In this document: in pieces, positions 1-44,201 of the stretch
How the letters are laid out: the number at the start of each line of letters is the position of its first letter
Position numbering within the stretch: the first letter of the stretch is position 1
Origin: a virus
Lineage: Duplodnaviria; Heunggongvirae; Uroviricota; Caudoviricetes
IMG/VR virus record: IMGVR_UViG_2939521961_000009
Length of the DNA: 64,000 bases
Reading direction: 5' to 3' (one strand)
The notes under the pieces: generated by a model
The model's database searches: none
Seen by the model: only the letters and a program-made list of their open reading frames with translations
What the model was told of the DNA's origin: nothing
Made by a program: the position numbers and the translations under genes

Positions 1-1201
1 TCCAGTTGCCATCTCCCCGTGATTCCGCACCATAATACCCGGCAGAAGCGATATCCGGGTCGTGCTCCGGCAGGTTGGTCGCGGTTTTATTACCGAACTC
101 ATCGTGCATCAGTGGAACAAAGTGAATGTTCTCGGAAGCCCGGTTTTTATATCCGCTATAAATGGTTTCATATGCCGCCGGGTTCTTCTCTTTCCAGTCA
201 TAGGTTGTGTCACCACATAACCACGGCACACTGTCTGATGAACCACCAATACACTGACCGGAGAAAGCACCAAGATCCGCACGGAATTTTTTCACCATCG
301 CAGTAAACTGGGCACCATGCTGGGCCGGGGTCGCTTTAAGGTCTCCTTCCCCCTGAATCCATACGACAGATAACAGCACATTCTTTGGATTCGCCTCAAG
401 TGCCGCTTTAGTTCGACTGACAAGATCCTGATACAGTGGGGTATCCACTCCCCAGCGTAGTGACGCCTCGGCTGCACCACTTGCCGGATCGAATGAGCCA
501 ACTGCGCCGGTTGTAAAAGCAGAGCCGCCACGGGCACAGGGAACCAGTAAAATCCCGGCATCAGCAGGAATCACCGGTAATACTTTTTTCGCAATATGAA
601 GTCCCTGCCCCACACAACCATACTGCCCTTTTTTCAGGTCTGCTTTTGGATGGTTCAGCAGACTCATATTCTGAACATCATGAAGGCAGTGATCTGCTGG
701 AATGATTTCATTGTATTTGCAGGGAATACCTCCGGGGGTTTGTGTATTCCTGCGTGCCAGCTGCATAATACGTGGATCAGGACGATCATAAGAATCCGGA
801 AGGGGCAACCCTTCACCATAAGATGAAGCATTGGACTGGCCGGCTATAACAATCACGTAATACCAGGAAGGGGAGCTGGAAGCAGTTTCATTTCCTGACG
901 GACGGGTATGTGTTTCAGCATTATCCCAGTCTGACGGTTCAGCAGTACCGGCAACATCAGCACTTAACGGAATGACCGCACCAATACCCGCTCCGGTAAT
1001 TTCCACACTCGGATCACCGGATACTGGCCTTACCCACAGGCAATCCCGTGTATTAAAACTGATGAGACAGTCAGCAAATGTCATTCCTCCTTTTGTTTCG
1101 GCCGGAGGAAAGGGAGCCTCAAGAAATGCCGCTGTACCACCGGAAACTTTAACAGTAAAGTTTCCGGGCATTGATGATAGTTGAACCCATTTGGACGTCA
1201 T
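1..1201 (-). CDS. SASA/DUF303-family sialate O-acetylesterase-like protein (NanS-p-like), N-terminal ~400 aa; continues beyond window start
   Basis: Manual translation from ATG at 1201 (MTSKWVQLSSMPGNFTVKV...) stays open to position 1; absent from ORF track because no stop in window; contains VIVIAGQSNASSYGEG resembling the GQSN catalytic block of SASA esterases. Confidence 0.5.
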   Translation of the reverse strand, partial: MTSKWVQLSSMPGNFTVKVSGGTAAFLEAPFPPAETKGGMTFADCLISFNTRDCLWVRPVSGDPSVEITGAGIGAVIPLSADVAGTAEPSDWDNAETHTRPSGNETASSSPSWYYVIVIAGQSNASSYGEGLPLPDSYDRPDPRIMQLARRNTQTPGGIPCKYNEIIPADHCLHDVQNMSLLNHPKADLKKGQYGCVGQGLHIAKKVLPVIPADAGILLVPCARGGSAFTTGAVGSFDPASGAAEASLRWGVDTPLYQDLVSRTKAALEANPKNVLLSVVWIQGEGDLKATPAQHGAQFTAMVKKFRADLGAFSGQCIGGSSDSVPWLCGDTTYDWKEKNPAAYETIYSGYKNRASENIHFVPLMHDEFGNKTATNLPEHDPDIASAGYYGAESRGDGNW

Positions 1202-1861: not shown

Positions 1862-1916
1862 GTATTTACCTTCCTTAAAAAGAGGTGAAAATGCCTTTTA
1901 AAACAGATATACGGTA

Positions 1917-1942
1917 TCCCTGAAAACCTCGGTTTACGGGAA
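1917..1942. other. gix/pix-like recombination crossover site (left)
   Basis: Reverse complement reads TTCCCGTAAACC GA GGTTTTCAGGGA, closely matching the Mu gix site as recalled (TTCCTGTAAACC GA GGTTTTGGATAA). Confidence 0.6.
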
Positions 1943-2083
1943 ACGGTAAATAAGGCGGCGAATGCCCTGCCATCGAACGGAACGGCTGTTGCAGCGAATA
2001 AACTCGCCACTCCAAGAAATATTAATGGTGTCCCATTTGACGGAACGCAGGATATAAATATTACATCGGGGATGACGCAGTCT
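1931..2083. repeat. Inverted repeat, left copy (~155 bp) of invertible segment
   Basis: Plus-strand 1931-2083 is near-identical to reverse complement of 3152-3304 (e.g. shared GGTTTACGGGAAACGGTAAATAAGGC). Confidence 0.8.
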
Positions 2084-2287
2084 GTGGCTGACTCACGTTA
2101 TGTTCAAAGCATTCGAAGAGGTTCAAGGTCAACGATTGGAATGCAATATAATATTTTTGAAGTTCCTGACGGATGCGTACTTACAGGGCTTGATGTCGCT
2201 GGTGATGGTAATGCAACGGTAACCGCATATTATCGACCTGTTCAGTTTCTGATAGATGGTTCGTGGAAAACAGCTTCCAGCGCATAA
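1931..2287 (+). CDS. Alternative tail-fibre C-terminal segment (S'v-like), no own start, silent in current orientation
   Basis: Open frame through the left repeat into unique sequence ...SVADSRYVQSIRRG...YYRPVQFLIDGSWKTASSA; parallels the expressed fibre tip. Confidence 0.55.
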   Translation, partial: GLRETVNKAANALPSNGTAVAANKLATPRNINGVPFDGTQDINITSGMTQSVADSRYVQSIRRGSRSTIGMQYNIFEVPDGCVLTGLDVAGDGNATVTAYYRPVQFLIDGSWKTASSA

Positions 2288-2366
2288 AAGTGCAGTAGTT
2301 CAAAAAACAGATTATCTGAATAAATATATGATGATTTTGTCTTTTCAACAAAAACAAGGTGAAATA

Positions 2367-2888
2367 ATGGAGCTTATTAACGTAAAACGATATTACCCGG
2401 AACACAAACCCTATGGTGAGGATGTTCAGTATTTCCAGAGTGAGGACGGAAGGGATTTTTATGAATCTATCCCGCTTTTCACAAAGAAATACAAACTCTG
2501 TATTTCGCCTGTAACGGGTATTATCTGCTCTGTTGCTGAAGATGTCTCTGCTTTATATCCGGCAGGTTTTACTGTTGTTGAAGTGGACGAACTGCCGGAA
2601 GGTGTGAATATTGACGGTAACTGGCAGTTTTCTGATGGCCTGATATCAAAGGTGCCGGTAAACTGGAAGACGGTTGCTGAAAAGCGTCGCTCATCGCTGC
2701 TCCAGGAAGCCAACGAAACCGTGGATGACTGGAAAACAGAATTAAAACTGGACATGATTAGCGATGAAAATAAATTACAGCTGACGCGCTGGATGGCGTA
2801 TATCCGACAGCTTAAAGAAATGCACTTTAATGATATTGCCAGTGAGGGGCATTACCAGGCGATTCCCTGGCCGGAAAAACCGGAATAA
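2367..2888 (+). CDS. Tail fibre assembly protein (Tfa/U-like), in the currently inverted (non-expressed) orientation
   Basis: MELINVKRYYPEHKPYGEDVQYF... typical Tfa N-terminus; AAGGTGA Shine-Dalgarno 5 nt upstream of ATG at 2367; ORF track lists a longer 2256 start. Confidence 0.8.
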   Translation: MELINVKRYYPEHKPYGEDVQYFQSEDGRDFYESIPLFTKKYKLCISPVTGIICSVAEDVSALYPAGFTVVEVDELPEGVNIDGNWQFSDGLISKVPVNWKTVAEKRRSSLLQEANETVDDWKTELKLDMISDENKLQLTRWMAYIRQLKEMHFNDIASEGHYQAIPWPEKPE

Positions 2889-2922
2889 TTCAGAGGGTGC
2901 ATTCAGCACCCTTTTCTGTGGT

Positions 2923-3834
2923 TTACACTGAACTTACCGTTCTCCAGGCATTATTAATATAAATCTGAACCGGGCGATAATAGACCCCACCGATATTGTC
3001 CGCAGACCGGGAGCCGGTTTCCTGCACGTTAATACCGGAAAGCATACAACCGGAAGGTGCGCTGTAATTCCATGATATTTCATTGCCTCCGGGTGAATGA
3101 TAGCTCTGTGCTCCAAGCTGAACATTCTGTACATACCGGCCATCTGCGGTTGACTGCGTCATTCCTGACGTGATGTTGATATCCTGCGTTCCGTCAAAAG
3201 GAACGCCATTAATATTTCTTGGGGTGGCGAGTCTGTTTGCTGCCACGGCGGTTCCACCCGATGGCAGGGCATCAGCAGCCTTATTTACCGTTTCCCGTAA
3301 ACCGACGTTATCGATAAAAGCGCCTTTATCCGGAATGTCTGCGCCGTTCTGCTCCCTGCGCAGGTAACGGTTATCACCTTCGCTTTTGCTGTAAACATCC
3401 AGATTATTACGGGCGGTTCCCGCATTCTCCAGGTCGGCAAGGTTCTGATCCTTCGCCAGAGCATTAACGTCACCGGGACCAAGACTGTTTTTTGTGGCAA
3501 GCGCCCCAAGACCAAGATAACCACGGGCAAGACGCTGGGCTTCCGCACCGGCATCAGCAATTTCTTTCAGGTTGTTTTTCCGGGAAAAGGCATTCGCAGC
3601 GATAATGGCTTTAATGGACAGCGTAAGCTGGTTTAACTGCGCCTTATCCGGCTGAATACTGGCTTCAGCCAGAATATTCAGCAGTTCGGCCTGGAGAATA
3701 TTCAGCCAGTCCTGACCAATCCAGCTGATACCTTTTTGTCCGTCACCTTCGGTAAACCAGGTGGTGGTATTACTCTGCGCCGGTGCCAGCGCAGGCATAT
3801 TCGCCACGCCGGAATTATTATCAACATGAAACAT
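2923..3834 (-). CDS. Tail fibre protein (Mu S-like); constant N-terminus fused to the currently expressed variable tip
   Basis: 303 aa; C-terminus crosses the gix site and right inverted repeat; start overlaps stop of upstream gene at 3834. Confidence 0.8.
   Translation of the reverse strand: MFHVDNNSGVANMPALAPAQSNTTTWFTEGDGQKGISWIGQDWLNILQAELLNILAEASIQPDKAQLNQLTLSIKAIIAANAFSRKNNLKEIADAGAEAQRLARGYLGLGALATKNSLGPGDVNALAKDQNLADLENAGTARNNLDVYSKSEGDNRYLRREQNGADIPDKGAFIDNVGLRETVNKAADALPSGGTAVAANRLATPRNINGVPFDGTQDINITSGMTQSTADGRYVQNVQLGAQSYHSPGGNEISWNYSAPSGCMLSGINVQETGSRSADNIGGVYYRPVQIYINNAWRTVSSV
3152..3304. repeat. Inverted repeat, right copy of invertible segment
   Basis: Reverse complement matches 1931-2083; encodes the conserved ...ATPRNINGVPFDGTQDINITSGMTQ stretch in both tail-fibre variants. 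Confidence 0.8.
3292..3317. other. gix/pix-like recombination crossover site (right)
   Basis: TTCCCGTAAACC GA CGTTATCGATAA on plus strand; shares the 12-bp half-site with the left site in inverted orientation. Confidence 0.6.
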
Positions 3835-4394
3835 TAAATAGTCTCCTCTTCATGGCTGTTTGCATACACGTAAATAAACGTCTGCCATGCAGGCTTATAA
3901 CGGTTCAGAATACATTCCAGCGCACCGCCTTCATAAATACGCAGCGGCGTGAGAATATCATCCAGCACATTCATATTCCGGTAGCCGGTTTCACTGTTAA
4001 TCGTGACAATACTGACCCACTGTGAATCCGGTGATGGCTGAATATCTATTTCATAACCAAACTCTGCCGCAAACCGGATATAAAATTCACGGTTAAGAGA
4101 GGGTTTCATCCGGTATTTATTCCCGGCATAACGCTGACGCTCCTGAATGGTTGCGCCGGTCATATCACATTCCGGTAACCCCAGATAACGCTCCCAGTCT
4201 TCCAGCAGCAGACGGGATGAATCAGGAAAACGTTCTGCCAGCATCTGGTTACCGGTCCAGGAAACACGCTCCGTGGAATGACTGAGGCCCAGGCACAAAG
4301 CCGCAAGAACGGATGACGGCCGCTTATCCCATGCCAGCCCGTCAGGCAGCAACTGCAACAGGGCACGCTGATGCGGGGTCAGGGTTACAGCCAT
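3834..4394 (-). CDS. Tail protein, Mu gp48-like (DUF2313 / YmfQ-like)
   Basis: 186 aa; position between baseplate J-like gene and tail fibre; family resemblance from memory. Confidence 0.7.
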   Translation of the reverse strand: MAVTLTPHQRALLQLLPDGLAWDKRPSSVLAALCLGLSHSTERVSWTGNQMLAERFPDSSRLLLEDWERYLGLPECDMTGATIQERQRYAGNKYRMKPSLNREFYIRFAAEFGYEIDIQPSPDSQWVSIVTINSETGYRNMNVLDDILTPLRIYEGGALECILNRYKPAWQTFIYVYANSHEEETI

Positions 4395-5470
4395 GTGATT
4401 TCCCCCACGGTCAGCAACTCTGTATCTCCGGCCATCACGGACTTCAGCGGGCTGCGAACTTCAAAATCCTCCAGTCCTTTCACCCCTGCAACAGCCCGCC
4501 AGAATGATGAAGGCAATACAAGTCCACCCGGCCGCGATTCGTTATAAAGCAGGTCCGTTAATGCCTGTTTTACGGCAGCCTGATTTTCCGGCGTTTTGGG
4601 TACAATCCTGATCTCAAACGCCACCGGCTTATTGGTCAGCTTAAACACGCTGATTGTCGGCCCAAGTGGCTGACCAACGGGCTGGCCCGTCGCCGGATCA
4701 TCATGACTGCGGATATAATCCGCCACCCGCTTCACATCACCTTCTCCGGGGAAAATGTCAGGGTTATTATCCTGAACAAAAGTCACACCAACACTACCCG
4801 CCTCAGGCCATTCAGGCTTACACCATGCCCGCGTCACGCCCGGTACTTCCCGTGCCCAGCGTTCAAAATCATACTGTGTTCCCCCTGATGGCGGGTTCTG
4901 TACCCGGAATACCAGCCTGGACAGCAACTCCGGCACCGTTTCCACATCCGCACCACCGGTGAGTCCCGTGCCGGTGACCGTGGCTGTCTGGTTGATGCCC
5001 GCCTGTGGCGTGATAAAGGACAGGCGGGTTCCGGTCGGGGTATTTCCAGCGCGCCCCGCACTTTCCGCCTCCACATTAACATTCAGTGTTCCGGCTTTTC
5101 CGGTCGCAGAGCCGGTGATGCGGTACACAACACCATCGCTTCGCTGAAGGAGTACGCCTTCCGTGATCCCTGCATCCGTGGTCAGCATCAGTTGTACCGG
5201 TCCGTCAGCGCGGGAAGCCGGTTTACGGATGACACCCCAGAATGCGCAGTGTTTCAGGAGTTCGGCTTCATCAGCTTCTGTCGGAATTATCTGCCGGGAG
5301 ATCCAGGCCAGATGTTCATGCTCCTGTGCTGACAGACCCGCCAGTGCATACGCAATGGCATTCAGGGTGGTTTCATTCACGCCCGGCTGCGAACCGGGCA
5401 GGCGCTGGCTGATATCCTGTTGTGTCTGTGTGATCAGTTGCGCCAGTGGTAAGGGCTGATAAGGCATCAT
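4385..5470 (-). CDS. Baseplate J-like protein (Mu gp47-like)
   Basis: 361 aa; synteny in Mu-type baseplate cluster. Confidence 0.8.
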   Translation of the reverse strand: MMPYQPLPLAQLITQTQQDISQRLPGSQPGVNETTLNAIAYALAGLSAQEHEHLAWISRQIIPTEADEAELLKHCAFWGVIRKPASRADGPVQLMLTTDAGITEGVLLQRSDGVVYRITGSATGKAGTLNVNVEAESAGRAGNTPTGTRLSFITPQAGINQTATVTGTGLTGGADVETVPELLSRLVFRVQNPPSGGTQYDFERWAREVPGVTRAWCKPEWPEAGSVGVTFVQDNNPDIFPGEGDVKRVADYIRSHDDPATGQPVGQPLGPTISVFKLTNKPVAFEIRIVPKTPENQAAVKQALTDLLYNESRPGGLVLPSSFWRAVAGVKGLEDFEVRSPLKSVMAGDTELLTVGEITWL

Positions 5471-17848: not shown

Positions 17849-17969
17849 ATTGCCTCCGTATAAAATATGAATATAAAATAAGCAGGCGGTCAGTGTACGC
17901 TTAACTGGTAAAGTCGGTGCCTGCCTCCGGGTGGATCATGTATGCGGGTTCGACCCCCGCCACTGACCG

Positions 17970-35985: not shown

Positions 35986-36203
35986 CAGAACCTCGCCAGC
36001 CGGTACCCGGGATGCCCCCGTCGTCGTGTAATCAGAGCCGCAAGGCGGCGCTCCCACTCCTGCCGTCCCTGCCGGATCTCAGATAAGTTTTCCATGGTCA
36101 TCTGCTGACCATTAAAGGTGACGGATTTTCCGTCCAGCACCGCCATTTCAGCTTCCGTATAACGCTGAATCATGGCTTCGATATCATTCTGGTTCATAAC
36201 CAT
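35985..36203 (-). CDS. Head-tail joining protein W-like
   Basis: 72 aa ending ...RRRGHPGYRLARF, located between terminase A and portal. Confidence 0.65.
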   Translation of the reverse strand: MVMNQNDIEAMIQRYTEAEMAVLDGKSVTFNGQQMTMENLSEIRQGRQEWERRLAALITRRRGHPGYRLARF

Positions 36204-38293
36204 CCTCCGGAAGTCAGCCAGGGGTTAACATCGTCAGTTACTGTTTTCTTCCGTTTTTGTTTTTTAACAGGCGTGGATACCGGTTCCGGTGAGGATGACG
36301 GTTCGGTACTGTCCTGGACACACTCCAGCCAGGTCTCCCGGCTCGCCCACTCCGGTGCATCCGGCCAGCGGATCTTTTCGTATCCATGCAGAATGACCAG
36401 AGCCTCGGCATACACCATCAGGTCAAAAGCTTCGTTGGCACCGCGACCCGGCTTACTCCATTTCCCGTCACTGCTCCGCTCTTCATACGTCAGTTCGTCG
36501 TAAAACCAGCTCCCCAGCCAGTCAGGGAAATGCACATAGCCTGGACCTGGCGAGTCACGCCATAACGCGTTATTCACCCGGTCTTTCAGGGCATCCGTCT
36601 GAAGAAGCCAGAGCGGCACATCACCTGCGGCCTGCGCCCGGCGGCCCGTTCGTCCGGTGTTATCAGGGAATGTACGGCTGATCAGTTTTGCGCGCCGGAT
36701 GCTGTCACCCTTAAACAGGTAAATACGTTTACCAAGGCCATCACGACGGCAACGACGCCAGAATTTATAGGCATTATCAGTGACCCCGTCTTCACCGCCG
36801 GAGTCCACCGCCATTGCCATCAGTCGCATTTGTTGAGAAGGATCGGAGGCCAGCGGCCAGCTTTTATGAAAAACATCCGTCAGCAGGACATCCCAGTCTT
36901 CCGGATAGCTGGCCGGATCAATTCGCTGGCTCTCCCCGTCGCAGTCACTGCGCAATGACTGCGTGATGTTGTAACGATCAATAATCCAGCGTTCGCCACG
37001 ACTGCCATAGCCCGTTACCTGAACCACAAAACGGCGATGACGTCCCGCCTGCACATCCACTGTCGCCACAAGGAAATTAACGCCATCCGGCACACTGCGG
37101 GAAGGAACTGGCTCTGCCCGCTGCTCAAGCAGTTCACTTTTTCGTTGCTCCATGCTGGCACGAGGAAGATAAGGCAATCCCCAGTCGGTGTTGATAACCG
37201 CCCTGAGTGTTTCTTCGCTTCCTGTCGCTTCATACTCCTGTTCTGCAGTCAGTAATTTGTAAACCAGTTGCGCCCAGGTCTGATACGCAGCAGCTGGCCC
37301 TTCCATCCAGAAACTGGCGATACGGGAGCGGCGCGGTTCACCGGAAACGTTGCCGTTACGATCAATGACCTGACCTTCACGCAACCAGACTCCTGCACTA
37401 TTGAGCTCACGCTTTTTCTCCGCAGTGATAATGCCGCTGCAGTGCGGGCAAAGTAGATACGCCGCCTCACTGGCTTTAAAGGGATCCGGTTCATTACGGT
37501 AGCCGGTCATGGCATCCATGGCTGGCTGAAAATATTCACCGCAGTGCGGACATGACCAGTACCAGCGGCGGCGGTCACCACGATTGTAAAGGGAAAGAAT
37601 ACCAGTCGTCGGTGGCGCTTCATGAGGCGACTTACGTCGCCATTTGCTGTCGCAGATGTCACGTCCCGGCGAGCTCTCCACCAGAGTCATCCCAGCGGAC
37701 ATAAATGTGGTGGTACGTTTTGAGGCCAGGGAGAAACCATCACCCTCGCTGTCGATATTCTCCGGAAAACGGTCGTAATCGGTTAAGGCGACAAACCGGT
37801 AATCCGACGACGACATAATGTTGACCGAGGGCCAACCAATTTTAAGGAACGAGCCATCCCTGAACGTCTTATCATGGACATTATTGTCGTTACGACGTGG
37901 ACTCATTCTTTTCTTTACCGCCGCACTGCTTCTGAACGTTCTGTCGAGGCGCTTTTTAGAATGCTCGCGGGCCTTATCTTCGGTCATCTGCACAACGAGC
38001 ATGTCCGAAGGATCGCAAACGATGGTATAGACAATCCATCCATCGATCAGACCAATGGTCTTCCCTGTTCGCGCAGGACCAACAAAAATCACCGCATCGT
38101 ATTCACGCGATGCCAGGCAGTTCATGGGCTCAATGATGTAGGGTGTCAGTTCAGGATCCCATGGCACCGAGTTACCAGCCCCCTTGGGAACACGCATGAA
38201 TTTTTTAACAGCCTCCGAAATCGGCATGCGACGTGGTGGGGAAAATCCTGCCGATATGTCCCTTCCCAAATTTCGGGCTGATGAAAAACCCAT
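36194..38293 (-). CDS. Terminase large subunit (lambda gpA-like)
   Basis: 699 aa; Walker A GPARTGKT. Confidence 0.9.
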   Translation of the reverse strand: MGFSSARNLGRDISAGFSPPRRMPISEAVKKFMRVPKGAGNSVPWDPELTPYIIEPMNCLASREYDAVIFVGPARTGKTIGLIDGWIVYTIVCDPSDMLVVQMTEDKAREHSKKRLDRTFRSSAAVKKRMSPRRNDNNVHDKTFRDGSFLKIGWPSVNIMSSSDYRFVALTDYDRFPENIDSEGDGFSLASKRTTTFMSAGMTLVESSPGRDICDSKWRRKSPHEAPPTTGILSLYNRGDRRRWYWSCPHCGEYFQPAMDAMTGYRNEPDPFKASEAAYLLCPHCSGIITAEKKRELNSAGVWLREGQVIDRNGNVSGEPRRSRIASFWMEGPAAAYQTWAQLVYKLLTAEQEYEATGSEETLRAVINTDWGLPYLPRASMEQRKSELLEQRAEPVPSRSVPDGVNFLVATVDVQAGRHRRFVVQVTGYGSRGERWIIDRYNITQSLRSDCDGESQRIDPASYPEDWDVLLTDVFHKSWPLASDPSQQMRLMAMAVDSGGEDGVTDNAYKFWRRCRRDGLGKRIYLFKGDSIRRAKLISRTFPDNTGRTGRRAQAAGDVPLWLLQTDALKDRVNNALWRDSPGPGYVHFPDWLGSWFYDELTYEERSSDGKWSKPGRGANEAFDLMVYAEALVILHGYEKIRWPDAPEWASRETWLECVQDSTEPSSSPEPVSTPVKKQKRKKTVTDDVNPWLTSGGWL

Positions 38294-38301
38294 TATTCCT
38301 C

Positions 38302-38859
38302 CTAGAGACTCTCTCCTTCCTCATCAGGAATTAATTCAGCAGCACAAGCCTCGTAGGATTTTTCCTGAAGAGTGTATCGCAGGTCATCAATGGCCTGCTG
38401 TACAACGCCGACGGCCTGAGGAGTCAGGGCGCAATCGCGTTCAAGAACATCCGGAATTGTCTCCAGAACCTGGACGACAGCCTTTCTCATGGACGAATAG
38501 ACGATGACTACTTCATCAACGGGGATGAGTTTTCGCTGCTCCTTTTCCAGCTTGATCCTTTCATTTTCAGATTGGTACCAGTCCTTTCTCTCTTTCGGCT
38601 CCATACGGGATGGATCATGAACAGAGTCTGCTGCCTCATGCTTCACACTAAACAGGGCTGGCCCGACATGCTGCAGGGCGTAAACGGGGTTCCCCCTGAC
38701 AGTCGCAGCCACAGGAGTGTTAGCCGCGAGGAGCCGTTTTTTTACTGTGTCCCGGTGAAGCCCAAAGGCCTCAGCGATTTTAAAAACACTCCAGTAATAA
38801 GCATCACCGATCCCGCTCACATTTGACATAAGCAACTCCATCTGGCAGGTGAAAATCAT
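38302..38859 (-). CDS. Terminase small subunit (Nu1/NohA-like)
   Basis: 185 aa, N-terminal HTH, upstream of gpA. Confidence 0.8.
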   Translation of the reverse strand: MIFTCQMELLMSNVSGIGDAYYWSVFKIAEAFGLHRDTVKKRLLAANTPVAATVRGNPVYALQHVGPALFSVKHEAADSVHDPSRMEPKERKDWYQSENERIKLEKEQRKLIPVDEVVIVYSSMRKAVVQVLETIPDVLERDCALTPQAVGVVQQAIDDLRYTLQEKSYEACAAELIPDEEGESL

Positions 38860-39008
38860 GTTTATTTATATATTTCAATTAATTGCAAACTGGTCTAATG
38901 ACAGGGAGAAAGAAATATTGTACAGGTGAAAAGAGAAATAACTTTTAATTATCAATAAATTACCAAACATGCTGCCGCCGCCATGGAAATGCAAAAACTA
39001 GCCTTTTT

Positions 39009-39026
39009 CCGCGACGCTCCCGCCCC
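39009..39026. other. Putative cosN-like cohesive-end site
   Basis: Minus strand reads GGGGCGGGAGCGTCGCGG ~150 bp upstream of Nu1, resembling lambda GGGCGGCGACCTCGCGGG. Confidence 0.4.
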
Positions 39027-39050
39027 GTGGCAGGGGCCCCCACCGGGAGG

Positions 39051-39075
39051 ACCCGACAGCCTGACAGCCTGACAG
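39051..39075. repeat. Triple direct repeat GACAGCC adjacent to putative cos
   Basis: gacagcctgacagcctgacagcc. Confidence 0.7.
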
Positions 39076-39213
39076 CCGTGATGAGCATCTGATACAGCGC
39101 TTTACATAATGGCATAGGAATAATTCAGAAGGACATCACAGCATGCCCACACAAATTAGTGTGAGTGTCCTGTTTCTTCCTACGCACAGGACTGACGAGC
39201 ATGAGGGGAAAAT

Positions 39214-39384
39214 ATGCGAACCATAAATGCCTCATCTTCAGCAATGCAACCGGCATCCGAACAGGACGATATTGTAAATTCACCTAATTACGAGGACATT
39301 GCAGTAGTTGAATTGCAGCTCTGTATTAGCCTGACAGTGACAGAATGCGATATTGACTCTGTCACAGGTGAAATAGTTTGAATG
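39214..39384 (+). CDS. Hypothetical small protein (56 aa)
   Basis: ATG preceded by GAGGGG; below ORF-track size cutoff. Confidence 0.3.
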
Positions 39385-39401
39385 ATTAGCAGTTATGGTG
39401 C

Positions 39402-39608
39402 TCAGTCAACCACCAGGGAATAATCCTTCGAATTCTTATCGTGCTTCACCAACGCTGCCTCAATTGCCCTGAATGCTTCCAGAGACACCTGATGTTCTAT
39501 ACATGCAATTACAACATCCGGGTAACTCATAGAAATGGTGCTATTAAGCATATTTTTTACACGAATCAGATCCAACGAGACTTCATCAGCAGATTGTTCT
39601 TTATTCAT
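39402..39608 (-). CDS. YbcW-like small protein
   Basis: 68 aa [39 protein letters not shown]... Confidence 0.6.
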
Positions 39609-39908
39609 TTTGTCGCTCCATGCGTTTGCTCGTCATCTAGCGGTTAAAATATTACTTCAAATCTTACTGCATAAAAGAGGAAAAGTATGAAAGTTTGAGT
39701 ACATCGACCTTACATACATCTGTCGGTTGCATATCCCTCCTGGATGCCAGCAAGGCTCAATTTTGTTACGCAATCAACACTATTCATTAAAAACAGGCTT
39801 AATATTTGACATAAATCATCAACAAAACACAAAGAGGTCAGACCAGATTGAAACAATAAACACGATAATGCTAACTACGCGCCATCGTATCACATGGAAG
39901 GTTTACCA

Positions 39909-40319
39909 ATGGCTCAGGCTGCCATTTTTAAAGAAATATTCGATCAAGTGCGTAAAGATTTAAACTGTGAATTATTTTATTCTGAGCTAAAACGTCACAA
40001 TGTCTCACTTTATATTTACTATTTAGCCACAGATAATATTCACATTGTGTTAGAAAACGACAACATAGTGTTAGTAAAAGGACTCAAAAAGGTTGTAAAT
40101 GTTAAATTCTCCAGAAACAAACATCTTATAGAGACCTCCTATAATAAGTTGAAATCAAAAGAAATCACATTTCAACAATACAGGGAAAATCTTGCTAAAG
40201 CAGGAGTTTTCCGATGGGTTACAAATATCCAGGAACACCAAAGATATTACTATGCCTTTGATAACTCATTACTATTTACTGAAAGCATCCAGAAAACTAC
40301 ACAGATCTTACCACGCTAA
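39909..40319 (+). CDS. DUF1398-family protein (YdfO/YbcV-like)
   Basis: 136 aa from [11 protein letters not shown]...; ORF track start at 39894. Confidence 0.65.
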
Positions 40320-40470
40320 ACCATAACGTCCGGCTTCTCTCACTCCTGAGCCGGACTGCATTGGTTTAATAAAAACCATCAACAATTGTGATTTAGATAT
40401 TCGGAACCATTCAAATATAACAAAACCCCGAAAAAACGAGGTTTATGGATAAATTTTATTATTGAATACA

Positions 40471-40644
40471 TCAGATTAAATTAATCTTGACATCATAGCT
40501 TTCAAGACCCGTCATTTTTTCCCGTGCGGTAAACTGAATACTGGTAACTTCTTTCCCGGTCTTTTTCTTAAGTTCAATAATTTTTTTTGTTATATATTCA
40601 GAAATATCTGCTTCTGCTTTTGTTTTTAAGTTTTCAATATTCAT
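40471..40644 (-). CDS. gnsB: GnsB-like small protein (57 aa)
   Basis: Manual translation MNIENLKTKAEADISEYITKKIIELKKKTGKEVTSIQFTAREKMTGLESYDVKINLI; below ORF-track cutoff. Confidence 0.65.
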   Translation of the reverse strand: MNIENLKTKAEADISEYITKKIIELKKKTGKEVTSIQFTAREKMTGLESYDVKINLI

Positions 40645-40815
40645 CATTTCCTCTTTTAGTCTGTTATGACTTTCCAGTTACACAGTAAGTCGATTATATG
40701 GTGCAAACGTGTAAAAGATAAGATGAAACATCGCAATAATCAACATACGATAGTCTAAATTTTACACAAACAGACAAAGAGAATTTTCCTGAATTATCAA
40801 TACAATAGCATCAAA

Positions 40816-41046
40816 TCAACTCAAGAGCCTTATTGCTGCTTCCAGAATTTCTTCTGAAGTAACATGTCGATCCGCGGCTACATAAATGACTTTATGATCT
40901 CCGGTCAGAGATGGAAACCCTGCGGCCATTACAGTAAGGTGTGTTTTTTCGCCATTTGGATATTCACGCATGATGGTGTTAACTCCAGTCATCGCTGGCA
41001 CTACCACTGCTGGTTCAGAGTTAAAAAAAACTATGATTTTTTTCAT
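40816..41046 (-). CDS. Hypothetical small protein (start at MKKIIVFF)
   Basis: ORF track 40816..41088. Confidence 0.4.
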   Translation of the reverse strand: MKKIIVFFNSEPAVVVPAMTGVNTIMREYPNGEKTHLTVMAAGFPSLTGDHKVIYVAADRHVTSEEILEAAIRLLS

Positions 41047-41090
41047 GATGTTACCGTAGTATGTGAGTATCCATCGAATAGATACCAAGC

Positions 41091-41113
41091 AAAAAAGCTC
41101 CCGAAGGAGCCTT
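41091..41113 (-). terminator. Rho-independent terminator candidate
   Basis: Minus strand AAGGCTCCTTCGGGAGCTTTTTTG hairpin plus T-run. Confidence 0.5.
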
Positions 41114-41317
41114 CATTTTCACTTTTTTAAATCCAACGACAGACGGCTGGCATTTAAGTATTGTGAAATATTATCAAATGTAATCATCATTGATTTACAA
41201 AAGATACATTTTGCCCCGAAAGGATTCATGTCAGAAACATCAAAAGATGATGTTCTATACTGGGAACCATGACAACACGGGCATCTAAAGTGAATATGGT
41301 TTGTAATATTGTCTACC

Positions 41318-41530
41318 TCAAAGCGCCACTACATGAACAGCGGCAGGACCTTTAGGTCCGTTCTCAATACCAAATTCAACTTCCTGATTCTCAGTTAATG
41401 TTTTGAAATCGTTGCTCTGAATTGCTGAGAAATGGACAAACACATCTTTGCTGCCATCTTTCGGCGTGATGAAACCAAAACCTTTTTCAGGGTTAAACCA
41501 TTTCACTAAACCAGTCATTTTGTTAGACAT
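41318..41530 (-). CDS. cspI: Cold-shock protein CspI-like
   Basis: 70 aa [42 protein letters not shown]... Confidence 0.9.
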
Positions 41531-41892
41531 AATTATTACCTTTTGAAGAAATTAGCCCTTGGGCAGAATGGTCCGAAAAAAAATATCAGAGAGAAAAACC
41601 AACAAGGAAATCTCAAGAGGTACAAATAATAAAATTATAACAATGACTGCTTCAGATAAATTTGTAACAAACCAGAACACCATTAACGCATGATTAACCA
41701 CCCATAGCAAGGATTACTTTTGTAAAGAAAAACACAGCAATGAAAGAATAGCTTTATTTATTAATAAAACGTGTCATTCTGATTAAGACCTTTTATCTTA
41801 CCCTTAAGATTTCAGGAATTTTGGCTCATGGAAGAGTCCTTTTTATTTAAATTTTACATTCCGCGATGTAAATGTTCCGATTTAATATTACC

Positions 41893-42916
<1,024 letters not shown>

Positions 42917-42920
<4 letters not shown>

Positions 42921-43228
42921 ATATATTTATGATGAGGACGCTCGTGCTTATTGGCAGGATTTTCAATCTTAAAGGAGTACTGATGCTGCAGATAAGACTC
43001 AACTTTTTCTGACAATTTTTCTGCTACTTCCAGGAAGACTTGCCGGACGCTCCTTCTGGCTGCTGCCTCATAAAACTCCAGCGCAGCTCCTTCAACACGG
43101 TCCATGGCGACATCCAGGTCAAAAATTTCACCGTCAAAGCGTTCCTTGTCCTGTAAGGCTACAGTTACCGTAACTTTATTCTCAAAATTACGGACTCCTT
43201 TCACAACCAGTTCATAGTCTTGAGTCAT
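42917..43228 (-). CDS. YdfR-like protein
   Basis: 103 aa between holin and lysozyme. Confidence 0.55.
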
Positions 43229-43232
43229 TGGA

Positions 43233-43448
43233 TTACTCTCCTCTCGCAGCCTTACGCCTGTCTTCTTTAATCTTGAAATAAAGATTTGTCAGATACGTCA
43301 GCAGGCCAAAAACCAGGCTACCCAGCACACCGATTGCAGCCCACTGTGACGGAGTTACTTTATCGAGTAACTGTAATGCCCAGAAACCAGCATTACCCGC
43401 CGATGTGCCATAGGCAACACCTGTTGTTAACTTATCCATTGATTTCAT
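43233..43448 (-). CDS. Holin (EssQ/EssD-like class II)
   Basis: 71 aa from [14 protein letters not shown]... with two TM segments; ORF track start 43526 likely too long. Confidence 0.75.
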
Positions 43449-43667
43449 ATCCTCACCCCGATGTACACGGATGGTGCAATATGTTTGAAAAAGATCGGAG
43501 TCTACGGGGTAGTTTTGACAGCACACGTTGTTCTCAACGGCGCTAAAGAAACATACACATTAAAAATGTGAGTAATTATTTTGAAAGAAAGTCATATATA
43601 AAATAATAATACGAGAAATGTTTTCATATTTAGTGTACTGTATACGGCCATTATACAGGAAAAGCCT

Positions 43668-43838
43668 ATGTCAGAACGTAAAGACTCAAAATCACGCCGT
43701 AATTATCTCGTTAAATGTTCCTGCCCAAACTGCACCCAAGAGTCAGAACACAGTTTTTCAAGAGTACAAAAAGGTGCCCTTTTGATCTGCCCTCATTGCA
43801 ACAAAGTATTCCAGACAAATCTTAAAGCTGTAGCCTGA
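43668..43838 (+). CDS. Hypothetical small zinc-ribbon-like protein (56 aa)
   Basis: CSCPNC...CPHC pairs of Cys; below ORF-track cutoff. Confidence 0.4.
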   Translation: MSERKDSKSRRNYLVKCSCPNCTQESEHSFSRVQKGALLICPHCNKVFQTNLKAVA

Positions 43839-43895
43839 TTGATTTTATTAGTAACAAGTATTTTTTATATTTTAATAATATATTTAAAGCAGATA

Positions 43896-43920
43896 ATAAA
43901 AAACCCGCCTGAGCGGGTTT
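43896..43920 (-). terminator. Rho-independent terminator candidate (possibly bidirectional)
   Basis: CCCGC-CTGA-GCGGG hairpin flanked by A-run/T-run. Confidence 0.45.
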
Positions 43921-44201
43921 GAGATTGTGGTGCTTTTTGTGGGAGTCATCCACTTACGCACTTTGTTTTGCGATGCCAGCAGTTAGCTTCTGCTGTGAAA
44001 CTATTCATGCAGCAAACCTGCACTTCACCACAATGGTTAGCATACTTTTCCTGATTAAGATTTTGCCAAATATGCTAGCCATTGTTTCATGTATTGGACC
44101 TCCTTACTTTTTATTAAAGAGATCCAATATTCACTACTCTGTCCGTATCTCTACTCAGGCATCAGCCTTCTTCGTTATCGTATACAGACGAGCGATGAAT
44201 T

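Follow-up and report, generated by a model that had tools for sequence, protein, structure and literature searches.

An invertible tail-fibre segment with a single Tfa gene in a Mu-like prophage of the Escherichia coli Sp18 type

The G segment of bacteriophages Mu and SfMu and the P segment of e14 are well-described inversion systems for tail-fibre genes. In the G segment, a constant N-terminal fibre part is split from opposite-facing tips, and in Mu the segment spans ~3 kb and carries two Tfa genes, U and U', which lie 2-3 nt behind their respective tips. The P segment of e14, which adjoins PinE, has two convergent Tfa genes (stfP-tfaP/tfaE-stfE) and unrelated tip families (...NYIVRAA and ...NWIAIGY). 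Tips and chaperones are usually moved together in retargeting phages or tailocins. An invertible host-specificity region, scored as 'atypical', has also been published for Sp18, a prophage of E. coli O157:H7 Sakai; in the accessible part of that work, packaging of Sp18 is shown, infectivity is not demonstrated and a single-Tfa layout is not mentioned (Asadulghani et al., PMC2669165). Here, we describe the corresponding segment in a 64,000-nucleotide stretch of viral DNA (IMG/VR record IMGVR_UViG_2939521961_000009; hereafter the window), the left 36 kb of which is a Mu-like prophage with its late operon on the minus strand. This segment measures 1.38 kb and holds one Tfa gene, 79 nt behind a silent tip. 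The segment inverts and, judging from sequence comparisons, the single Tfa probably serves both tips.

The prophage region is 100% identical to that of E. coli 2013C-4081, in which dacD is interrupted, and the element is 97.4-98.9% identical to Sp18 over ~34 kb. For the switch region (2.8 kb) the identity to Sp18 is 98.9%, and ECs_4989-ECs_4992 are the same four genes in the same order and orientation. Sp18 induction occurs spontaneously and is not triggered by mitomycin C. The switch of the window is the invertible host-range switch already known from the Sp18-type Mu-like prophage of E. coli O157. The two elements differ in their insertion sites, sorM for Sp18 in Sakai and dacD for the element of the window, and in their right-end cargo, which is a Com and cytosine methyltransferase pair in the strain matching the window and a Mom-like gene in Sakai Sp18. 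The switch itself, having been described for Sp18, is ordinary; the puzzle is the arrangement of its chaperone gene, of which no description was found in the literature searched.

The likeness to Mu and SfMu extends to the fold family of the constant fibre part (Mu S 1-191), the tip family, a crossover within a GL(Q/R)ETVN motif, homologous gix sites (of the TTATCCAAAACCTCGGTTTACAGGAA type) and an invertase that lies downstream and is co-oriented with the late operon. With e14 the locus shares a YmfQ/Gp48-family gene before the fibre, an adjoining Pin and gix-like sites at equivalent positions. The Pin of the window is 75% identical to SfMu Gin and 72% identical to e14 PinE, and its sequence is that of a small serine recombinase, with a Pfam Resolvase domain at the N-terminus (E 1.4e-51) and HTH_7 at the C-terminus (E 1.7e-14). 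The element has the testable defining features of Gin/Pin inversion systems but lacks one defining feature of the Mu-type switch, a Tfa for each tip. The features of the region are collected in Table 1.

Table 1. Positions of the switch-region features, numbered from the first nucleotide of the window.
Feature	Position	Strand	Remarks
Pin, Gin/Pin-family serine DNA invertase, 186 residues	1301-1861	-	Pfam; PHROG 125 (DNA invertase)
Pin-proximal gix site, 26 bp	1917-1942		TCCCTGAAAACC TC GGTTTACGGGAA; core 1929-1930; read from sequence
Inverted repeat, left arm	1922-2106		encodes common GLRETVNKA...NINGVPFDGTQDINITSGMTQS stretch; repeat search, alignment
Invertible segment, core to core, 1,377 bp	1929-3305
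Sv', silent alternative fibre C-terminus	1931-2287	+	118 codons, GLRETV... to stop
AT-rich spacer, 79 nt, Sv' stop to tfa start	2288-2366	+
tfa, 173 residues	2367-2888	+	Pfam Caudo_TAP (PF02413), E 1.9e-18; PHROG 136
Terminator-like hairpin between convergent tfa and fibre genes	2892-2914	+	promoter/terminator scan
Expressed tail-fibre gene, 303 residues	2923-3834	-	PHROG 1833 tail fiber
Inverted repeat, right arm	3128-3312		repeat search, alignment
Distal gix site, 26 bp, inside fibre gene	3292-3317		TTCCCGTAAACC GA CGTTATCGATAA; core in Val177 codon
Mu Gp48/YmfQ-family baseplate protein, immediately upstream of fibre	3834-4394	-	Pfam Phage_Mu_Gp48, E 2e-22
Baseplate J	4385-5470	-	late operon

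The expressed fibre is a shortened Mu S. Its residues 1-198 match Mu S 1-191 and its residues 228-302 match the Mu S tip (434-503), the whole-protein match (PDB 5yvq_A) having an E value of 1.3e-48, and ~200 central residues of Mu S are missing. The crossover core lies in codon 177 and separates the constant part (Sc, 3306-3834) from the variable part (Sv, 2923-3305; 126 codons). In the orientation of the window (state A) the product is Sc-Sv, whereas in-silico flipping (state B) yields Sc-Sv' of 295 residues, followed by tfa. Both tips belong to the family of Mu S/S', P2 H, P1 S and Rac Stf; for Sv', identity is 57% with the Hafnia phage yong1 tip and 40% with that of Mu S. Between Sv and Sv' the identity is 55-60% overall, including the common stretch encoded by the repeats, and their variable parts are clearly different.

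The initial annotation had placed no assembly gene downstream of the expressed minus-strand fibre and had put the alternative tip with the only Tfa gene on the plus strand, and this layout is borne out. The tfa product scores 67.3 bits against PF02413 (cut-off 22.1) and matches Mu U (PDB chain 5yvq_B) with an E value of 2.3e-15. Its gene is co-oriented with Sv' and convergent with the expressed fibre, the two stop codons being 34 nt apart; tfa thus lies downstream of a fibre tip for Sv' only, after the 79-nt gap, and not for Sv. The intervening hairpin has its T-run 3' on the plus strand only, so it is terminator-like only there, and the locus labelled L007 has an equivalent hairpin. A second Tfa gene, the presence of which on the minus strand had been named beforehand as one finding that would tell against an asymmetric switch, was detected neither by tblastn nor by two Tfa hidden Markov models (HMMs; --max, all six frames) in the 64-kb window, nor is there one in the RefSeq annotation of the whole prophage. 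The controls behaved as expected, with two Tfa genes each in SfMu (S-U/U'-S') and in e14. The Mu-type switch has a Tfa for each tip, whereas the segment, like the window as a whole, has a single Caudo_TAP gene. A hidden gene antisense to tfa, downstream of Sv, was considered and rejected: the open stretch has 130 codons in the window, and the longest in the variant of an O91:H21 strain has only 67.

Two gix-like sites sharing a half-site had been proposed as the borders of a ~1.4-kb segment next to pin, and both sites and segment proved real. The sites are inverted 26-bp sequences, each with 12-bp half-sites around a matching 2-bp core. The 14-mer TTCCCGTAAACCGA, which comprises the inner half-site and the core, occurs exactly twice in the window, inverted, at 1929-1942 (-) and 3292-3305 (+), and no copy is expected by chance (100 shuffles). 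The distal site has a degenerate outer half (CGTTATCGATAA). The repeats of ~155 bp annotated inside the sites do exist, but they are imperfect and measure 185 nt at 81% identity (repeat search) or 161 nt at 85% (blastn). Their arms differ at 15-19% of positions and are identical only over the first ~28 nt beside the cores.

To see both states, the segment was inverted in silico at the cores with its flanks kept, and both versions were searched in 5,426 complete E. coli genomes, a genome being counted if at least 80% of the 2.8-kb query was covered. State A was found in 182 genomes (10 of them at 100.0% identity) and state B in 26 (five at 100.0% over 2,801 nt); strains Z869 and 8479 have two copies each, in opposite states. 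Because both orientations occur at 100.0% identity in complete genomes, the segment inverts at the two gix sites, as had been claimed for a Pin-driven switch; the basis is this comparison across public genomes, not reads of one culture. Since the arms differ at 15-19% of positions and the match to the in-silico product is 100%, the exchange falls within the ~28-30 identical bases that hold the gix core. On this sequence pattern, inversion is site-specific and does not come from general recombination along the repeat. Reads showing inversion have been reported for a Mu prophage and for P2-like prophages of enteropathogenic E. coli (EPEC) (PMC4272514). In the assemblies state A outnumbers state B about sevenfold, and the ratio is 10 to 5 among the 100% identical copies; the 182:26 bias may come from the common ancestry of O157 strains, or it may be real.

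A search of genome contigs with the constant fibre part gave only one locus, in Citrobacter braakii, and the wider survey was made through invertase homologues in IMG/VR. It covered 60 regions upstream of Pin homologues (73-100% identical), with a Tfa HMM that recovers all controls. The classical convergent pair of Tfa genes was present in 34 regions, two or three Tfa genes in other arrangements in three, and none in four; the remaining 19 had one Tfa. Four of these 19 are of the window type, and 12 others have their Tfa gene flanked by paired gix sites. These 12 include a P2-like element present in both states, as a 463-residue fibre alone (L061) and as a 528-residue fibre with Tfa (L063), and elements in which three tips go with a single Tfa. 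E. coli variants as distant as 82% nucleotide identity have the same layout, and so does C. braakii. Because the single-Tfa layout is found in 19 of the 60 loci, in the E. coli variants and in C. braakii, the asymmetry is a recurrent design and no peculiarity of the window; single-Tfa segments make up about a quarter to a third of the Pin-linked segments surveyed. The other examples (P2-like L032/L061/L063, L021/L027/L029/L034 and L078, and C. braakii L003) share with the window a single Tfa alongside two or three alternative tips, gix sites in pairs and an invertase of the Pin family (73-77% identical), but most differ from it in their tip families and in having no spacer before tfa. A three-repeat P2-like shufflon with three C-termini has been confirmed at read level in EPEC (PMC4272514). 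What is particular to the element of the window is that its Tfa-less tip comes from a family that is otherwise always Tfa-linked.

Two of these loci have further peculiarities. The C. braakii locus (L003:9190-11486) has a third gix-like site just upstream of pin; downstream of pin and outside the segment it encodes an additional collagen-repeat fibre of 320 residues together with a Tfa for that fibre, and this pair would be expressed in either state. In L078, two Pin-family invertase genes of opposite orientation flank one single-Tfa segment.

The single Tfa probably serves both tips, because relatives of Sv are Tfa-linked, Sv is under purifying selection, Tfa and Sv have a paired counterpart in Rac-SA53, and the pairing of tips with Tfa proteins is loose. 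As to the first point, a Tfa gene follows relatives of Sv within 2-6 nt in P2-like P22H1, SfMu (gp52/gp51, with gp52 as the relative), Cronobacter CR8 and Rac-SA53, and Sv is 56-65% identical to such Tfa-linked tips. Among the surveyed loci, all 11 Mu-S-type tips outside the family of the window element have a Tfa gene at 2-15 nt or overlapping. In C. braakii, the Sv-like tip stands in the Sv' position and is the Tfa-linked one. As to the second point, the ratio of non-synonymous to synonymous substitution rates (dN/dS) between two Sv alleles in E. coli is 0.107 at a dS of about 1, a sign of purifying selection and similar to the 0.12-0.14 for Sv' and the 0.18 for a third tip type. With a low dN/dS and a reading frame intact in all nine loci examined, Sv is on this pattern functional and not decaying.

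The third point concerns Rac-SA53, in which tail1 and tail2 are co-linear with a gap of 2 nt and which, in the stretch examined, has no invertase or alternative tip. Its tail2, 2 nt 3' of tail1, is the closest relative of the window Tfa outside the element (53% full-length identity, the N-terminal half being well conserved), and the tip of tail1 stands in the same relation to Sv (65% by tblastn, 56% over 94 residues). The Tfa beside the closest relative of Sv', that of Hafnia phage yong1, is only 32% identical to the window Tfa. This pairing, together with the distance to the yong1 protein, indicates that the window Tfa belongs with those that partner Sv-type tips. Finally, strain UTME-3 has the same Tfa (99% nucleotide identity, with the breakpoint at the tfa start) behind a different, Mu-S-like tip, while an O91:H21 strain pairs this type of tip with a Tfa only 64% identical; hence tip-Tfa pairing is loose. 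The 120-nt 'spacer' of the O91:H21 and UTME-3 variants (L007:4669-4788 and L008:4668-4788, both minus strand) starts with a ~40-nt remnant of the 3' end of an Sv'-type tip, and because of this remnant the sequence indicates that the Mu-S-like tip replaced Sv' by recombination and left tfa in place.

These lines of evidence lead to the following picture. Pin recombines the two 26-bp gix sites, one within the fibre gene and the other just upstream of pin, flips the 1,377-bp segment and thereby swaps the 126 or 118 codons at the 3' end of a gene for a short, Mu-S-like fibre. The single Tfa would act as a chaperone for any tip fused to Sc. If Tfa is shared, its gene must also be expressed in state A, where it would be antisense to the late transcript, and the most likely source is a promoter travelling with the segment, in the 79-nt spacer or the Sv' coding region. 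The switch would then alter receptor specificity, as in Mu, with no toggling between chaperoned and unchaperoned fibres. A spacer of 69-120 nt ahead of tfa is specific to the window-type layout, the gaps of the Mu, P2, yong1, CR8 and Rac-SA53 types being 2-15 nt. In the window this spacer contains the hexamer TATGAT, in C. braakii TATAAT. For Xenorhabdus tailocins, it has been proposed that alternative fibres use a common chaperone (PMC13280938). For the complete reading, a G-segment equivalent with one Tfa that is made in both states and shared by whichever tip joins Sc, the chances appear to us evenly balanced.

Several results weigh against such a shared Tfa and its travelling promoter. A sigma-70 scan of the window gave no promoter on the tfa strand upstream of tfa, and scans of L007 and of C. 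braakii (L003) gave only chance-level 9/12 matches. The spacers of the three types have no common motif (local alignments compared with shuffles) and none in common with ten upstream regions (late operon) of the same prophage; within the window type, the spacer is conserved no better than its flanks. A divergent pin-side promoter reading into the segment was also sought, and nothing passed the scan. Moreover, the P2-like single-Tfa segments have no spacer, so a spacer promoter cannot be a general solution. The window Tfa is, furthermore, only 28-30% identical to the Tfas beside P2-like and SfMu Sv-like tips.

The alternative that fares best takes the layout at face value: the asymmetry would be functional, with Sc-Sv folding and working without Tfa and only state B needing Tfa or using it as a bound cap or adhesin. 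This was in essence the initial annotation, in which Tfa accompanies the fibre in one state and is missing in the other. As a description of co-transcription in cis it stands, there being no Tfa in cis on the late strand in state A. Single-Tfa segments in 19 of 60 loci, including the P2-like two-state pair L061/L063 that lacks a spacer for a separate promoter, also speak for it, as does the excess of state A in the assemblies (182 vs 26). A homologous fibre of an Alteromonas phage has been reported to work without a chaperone, and the Tfa of Mu remains bound to the fibre tip (PMC10579305). As biology, however, it has against it the Tfa-linked relatives, the purifying selection, the Rac-SA53 pairing and the UTME-3 combination: Sv is 56-65% identical to tips that are always directly Tfa-linked, its sequence has nothing that sets it apart from them, and Rac-SA53 has a Tfa of the resident type partnered with an Sv-like tip. 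We consider a functional asymmetry unlikely.

Less probable still is that state A is defective or depends on other prophages, the layout being a deletion remnant of S-U/U'-S' and Sc-Sv misfolding unless Tfa comes from a co-resident prophage or from rare flipped copies. Strains of enterohaemorrhagic E. coli (EHEC) are rich in lambdoid prophages, and these carry tfa genes. In the accessible part of the Sp18 work, too, packaging but not infectivity is demonstrated (PMC2669165). Against this reading stand the strong purifying selection on Sv over deep divergence (dN/dS 0.107, dS about 1) and the persistence of the single-Tfa layout, both in C. braakii and in variants with as little as 82% nucleotide identity. 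The junction between the tfa and fibre stop codons, of just 34 nt with a hairpin, also looks compact rather than scarred. That inversion instead changes a fibre fragment expressed in the lysogen for the benefit of the host, for example by blocking superinfecting phages, has a precedent in the e14 P segment and StfE2, inversion by PinQ in e14 producing a protein that keeps T2 from adsorbing (PMC12529663), but is very improbable for an essentially complete prophage whose Sp18 counterpart has its DNA packaged, whose fibre lies within an intact late operon and whose silent tip fragment has no evident start codon or ribosome-binding site of its own.

The question matters beyond this locus. Tfa in Mu stays on the tip and is suggested to contact lipopolysaccharide; if state A indeed has no Tfa, inversion would toggle both receptor specificity and the presence of Tfa. 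If one Tfa copes with several tips, or if a Mu-type tip does without Tfa, this would show how strict tip-Tfa pairing is, and sequence-based prediction of prophage host range would also be affected. Tentatively, one might go further and see in single-Tfa segments a distinct, unrecognised design class, in which one Tfa within flipping DNA serves at least three tips (Sv, Sv' and the Mu-S-like tip), either expressed in both orientations or absent in one state so that a tip is left uncapped; this broader view is doubtful, though possible.

The crossover sites and the repeats offer further observations. The gix sequences of the window match sites upstream of invertases 73-77% identical to pin, and in most surveyed loci a homologue of the pin-proximal site is found equally far from the invertase (offset -68 to -74). 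In the distal site (3304-3309, ...AACC GA CGTTAT; ATAACG TC on the other strand), the base of the outer half-site beside the core is G/C-swapped, giving AACG versus the consensus AACC. The authors of the SfMu study suspected the same half-site position of blocking inversion (PMC4406740). The relatives L008, L009 and L011 carry AACC; the G variant is nonetheless seen in both orientations at 100% identity. Among seven close variants, 17.7% of columns are variable in the repeat-encoded part of Sv' (1931-2071), compared with 1.3-1.9% in the variable tip, spacer and tfa (2072-2888), and mosaicism or gene conversion seems to be concentrated in the repeat arms. Between pin and the segment (1878-1923, plus strand), a strong Shine-Dalgarno sequence, AGAGGTGA, precedes the start codon (ATG, position 1891) of a 10-codon reading frame (MPFKTDIRYP), which stops just short of the pin-proximal gix core on the strand reading into the segment.

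The Fis-dependent recombinational enhancer of gin and hin lies in the 5' portion of these invertase genes. In a set of 73 distinct Pin-family genes, codons 1-30 have a synonymous-codon entropy of 0.80-0.87; the overall value is 1.27, and stretches further downstream give 1.2-1.8. Synonymous diversity in the first 30 codons of pin, about one third lower than in the rest, is consistent with an overlapping cis element such as an enhancer, though not specific for one.

Directly downstream of pin, where Mu has com-mom, the element of the window encodes a 672-residue protein (window 1-1201, minus strand, cut by the window start; complete in L001:3954-5972, minus strand) with a SASA sialate O-acetylesterase domain and DUF6645. 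It falls in PHROG 143, to which no function is assigned there; we take it to resemble the prophage NanS-p esterases of EHEC, and it could be cargo or a receptor-modifying enzyme. At ~17889-17969, between head-morphogenesis genes, RefSeq lists a 'tRNA-OTHER', where ARAGORN finds no tRNA. Past the prophage end (~36100-44100 of the window; NZ_CP027573 5238000-5246000) lie the split dacD, a copy of IS1203 and P22-like remnants that comprise a tailspike, Ant, Arc and an acyltransferase.

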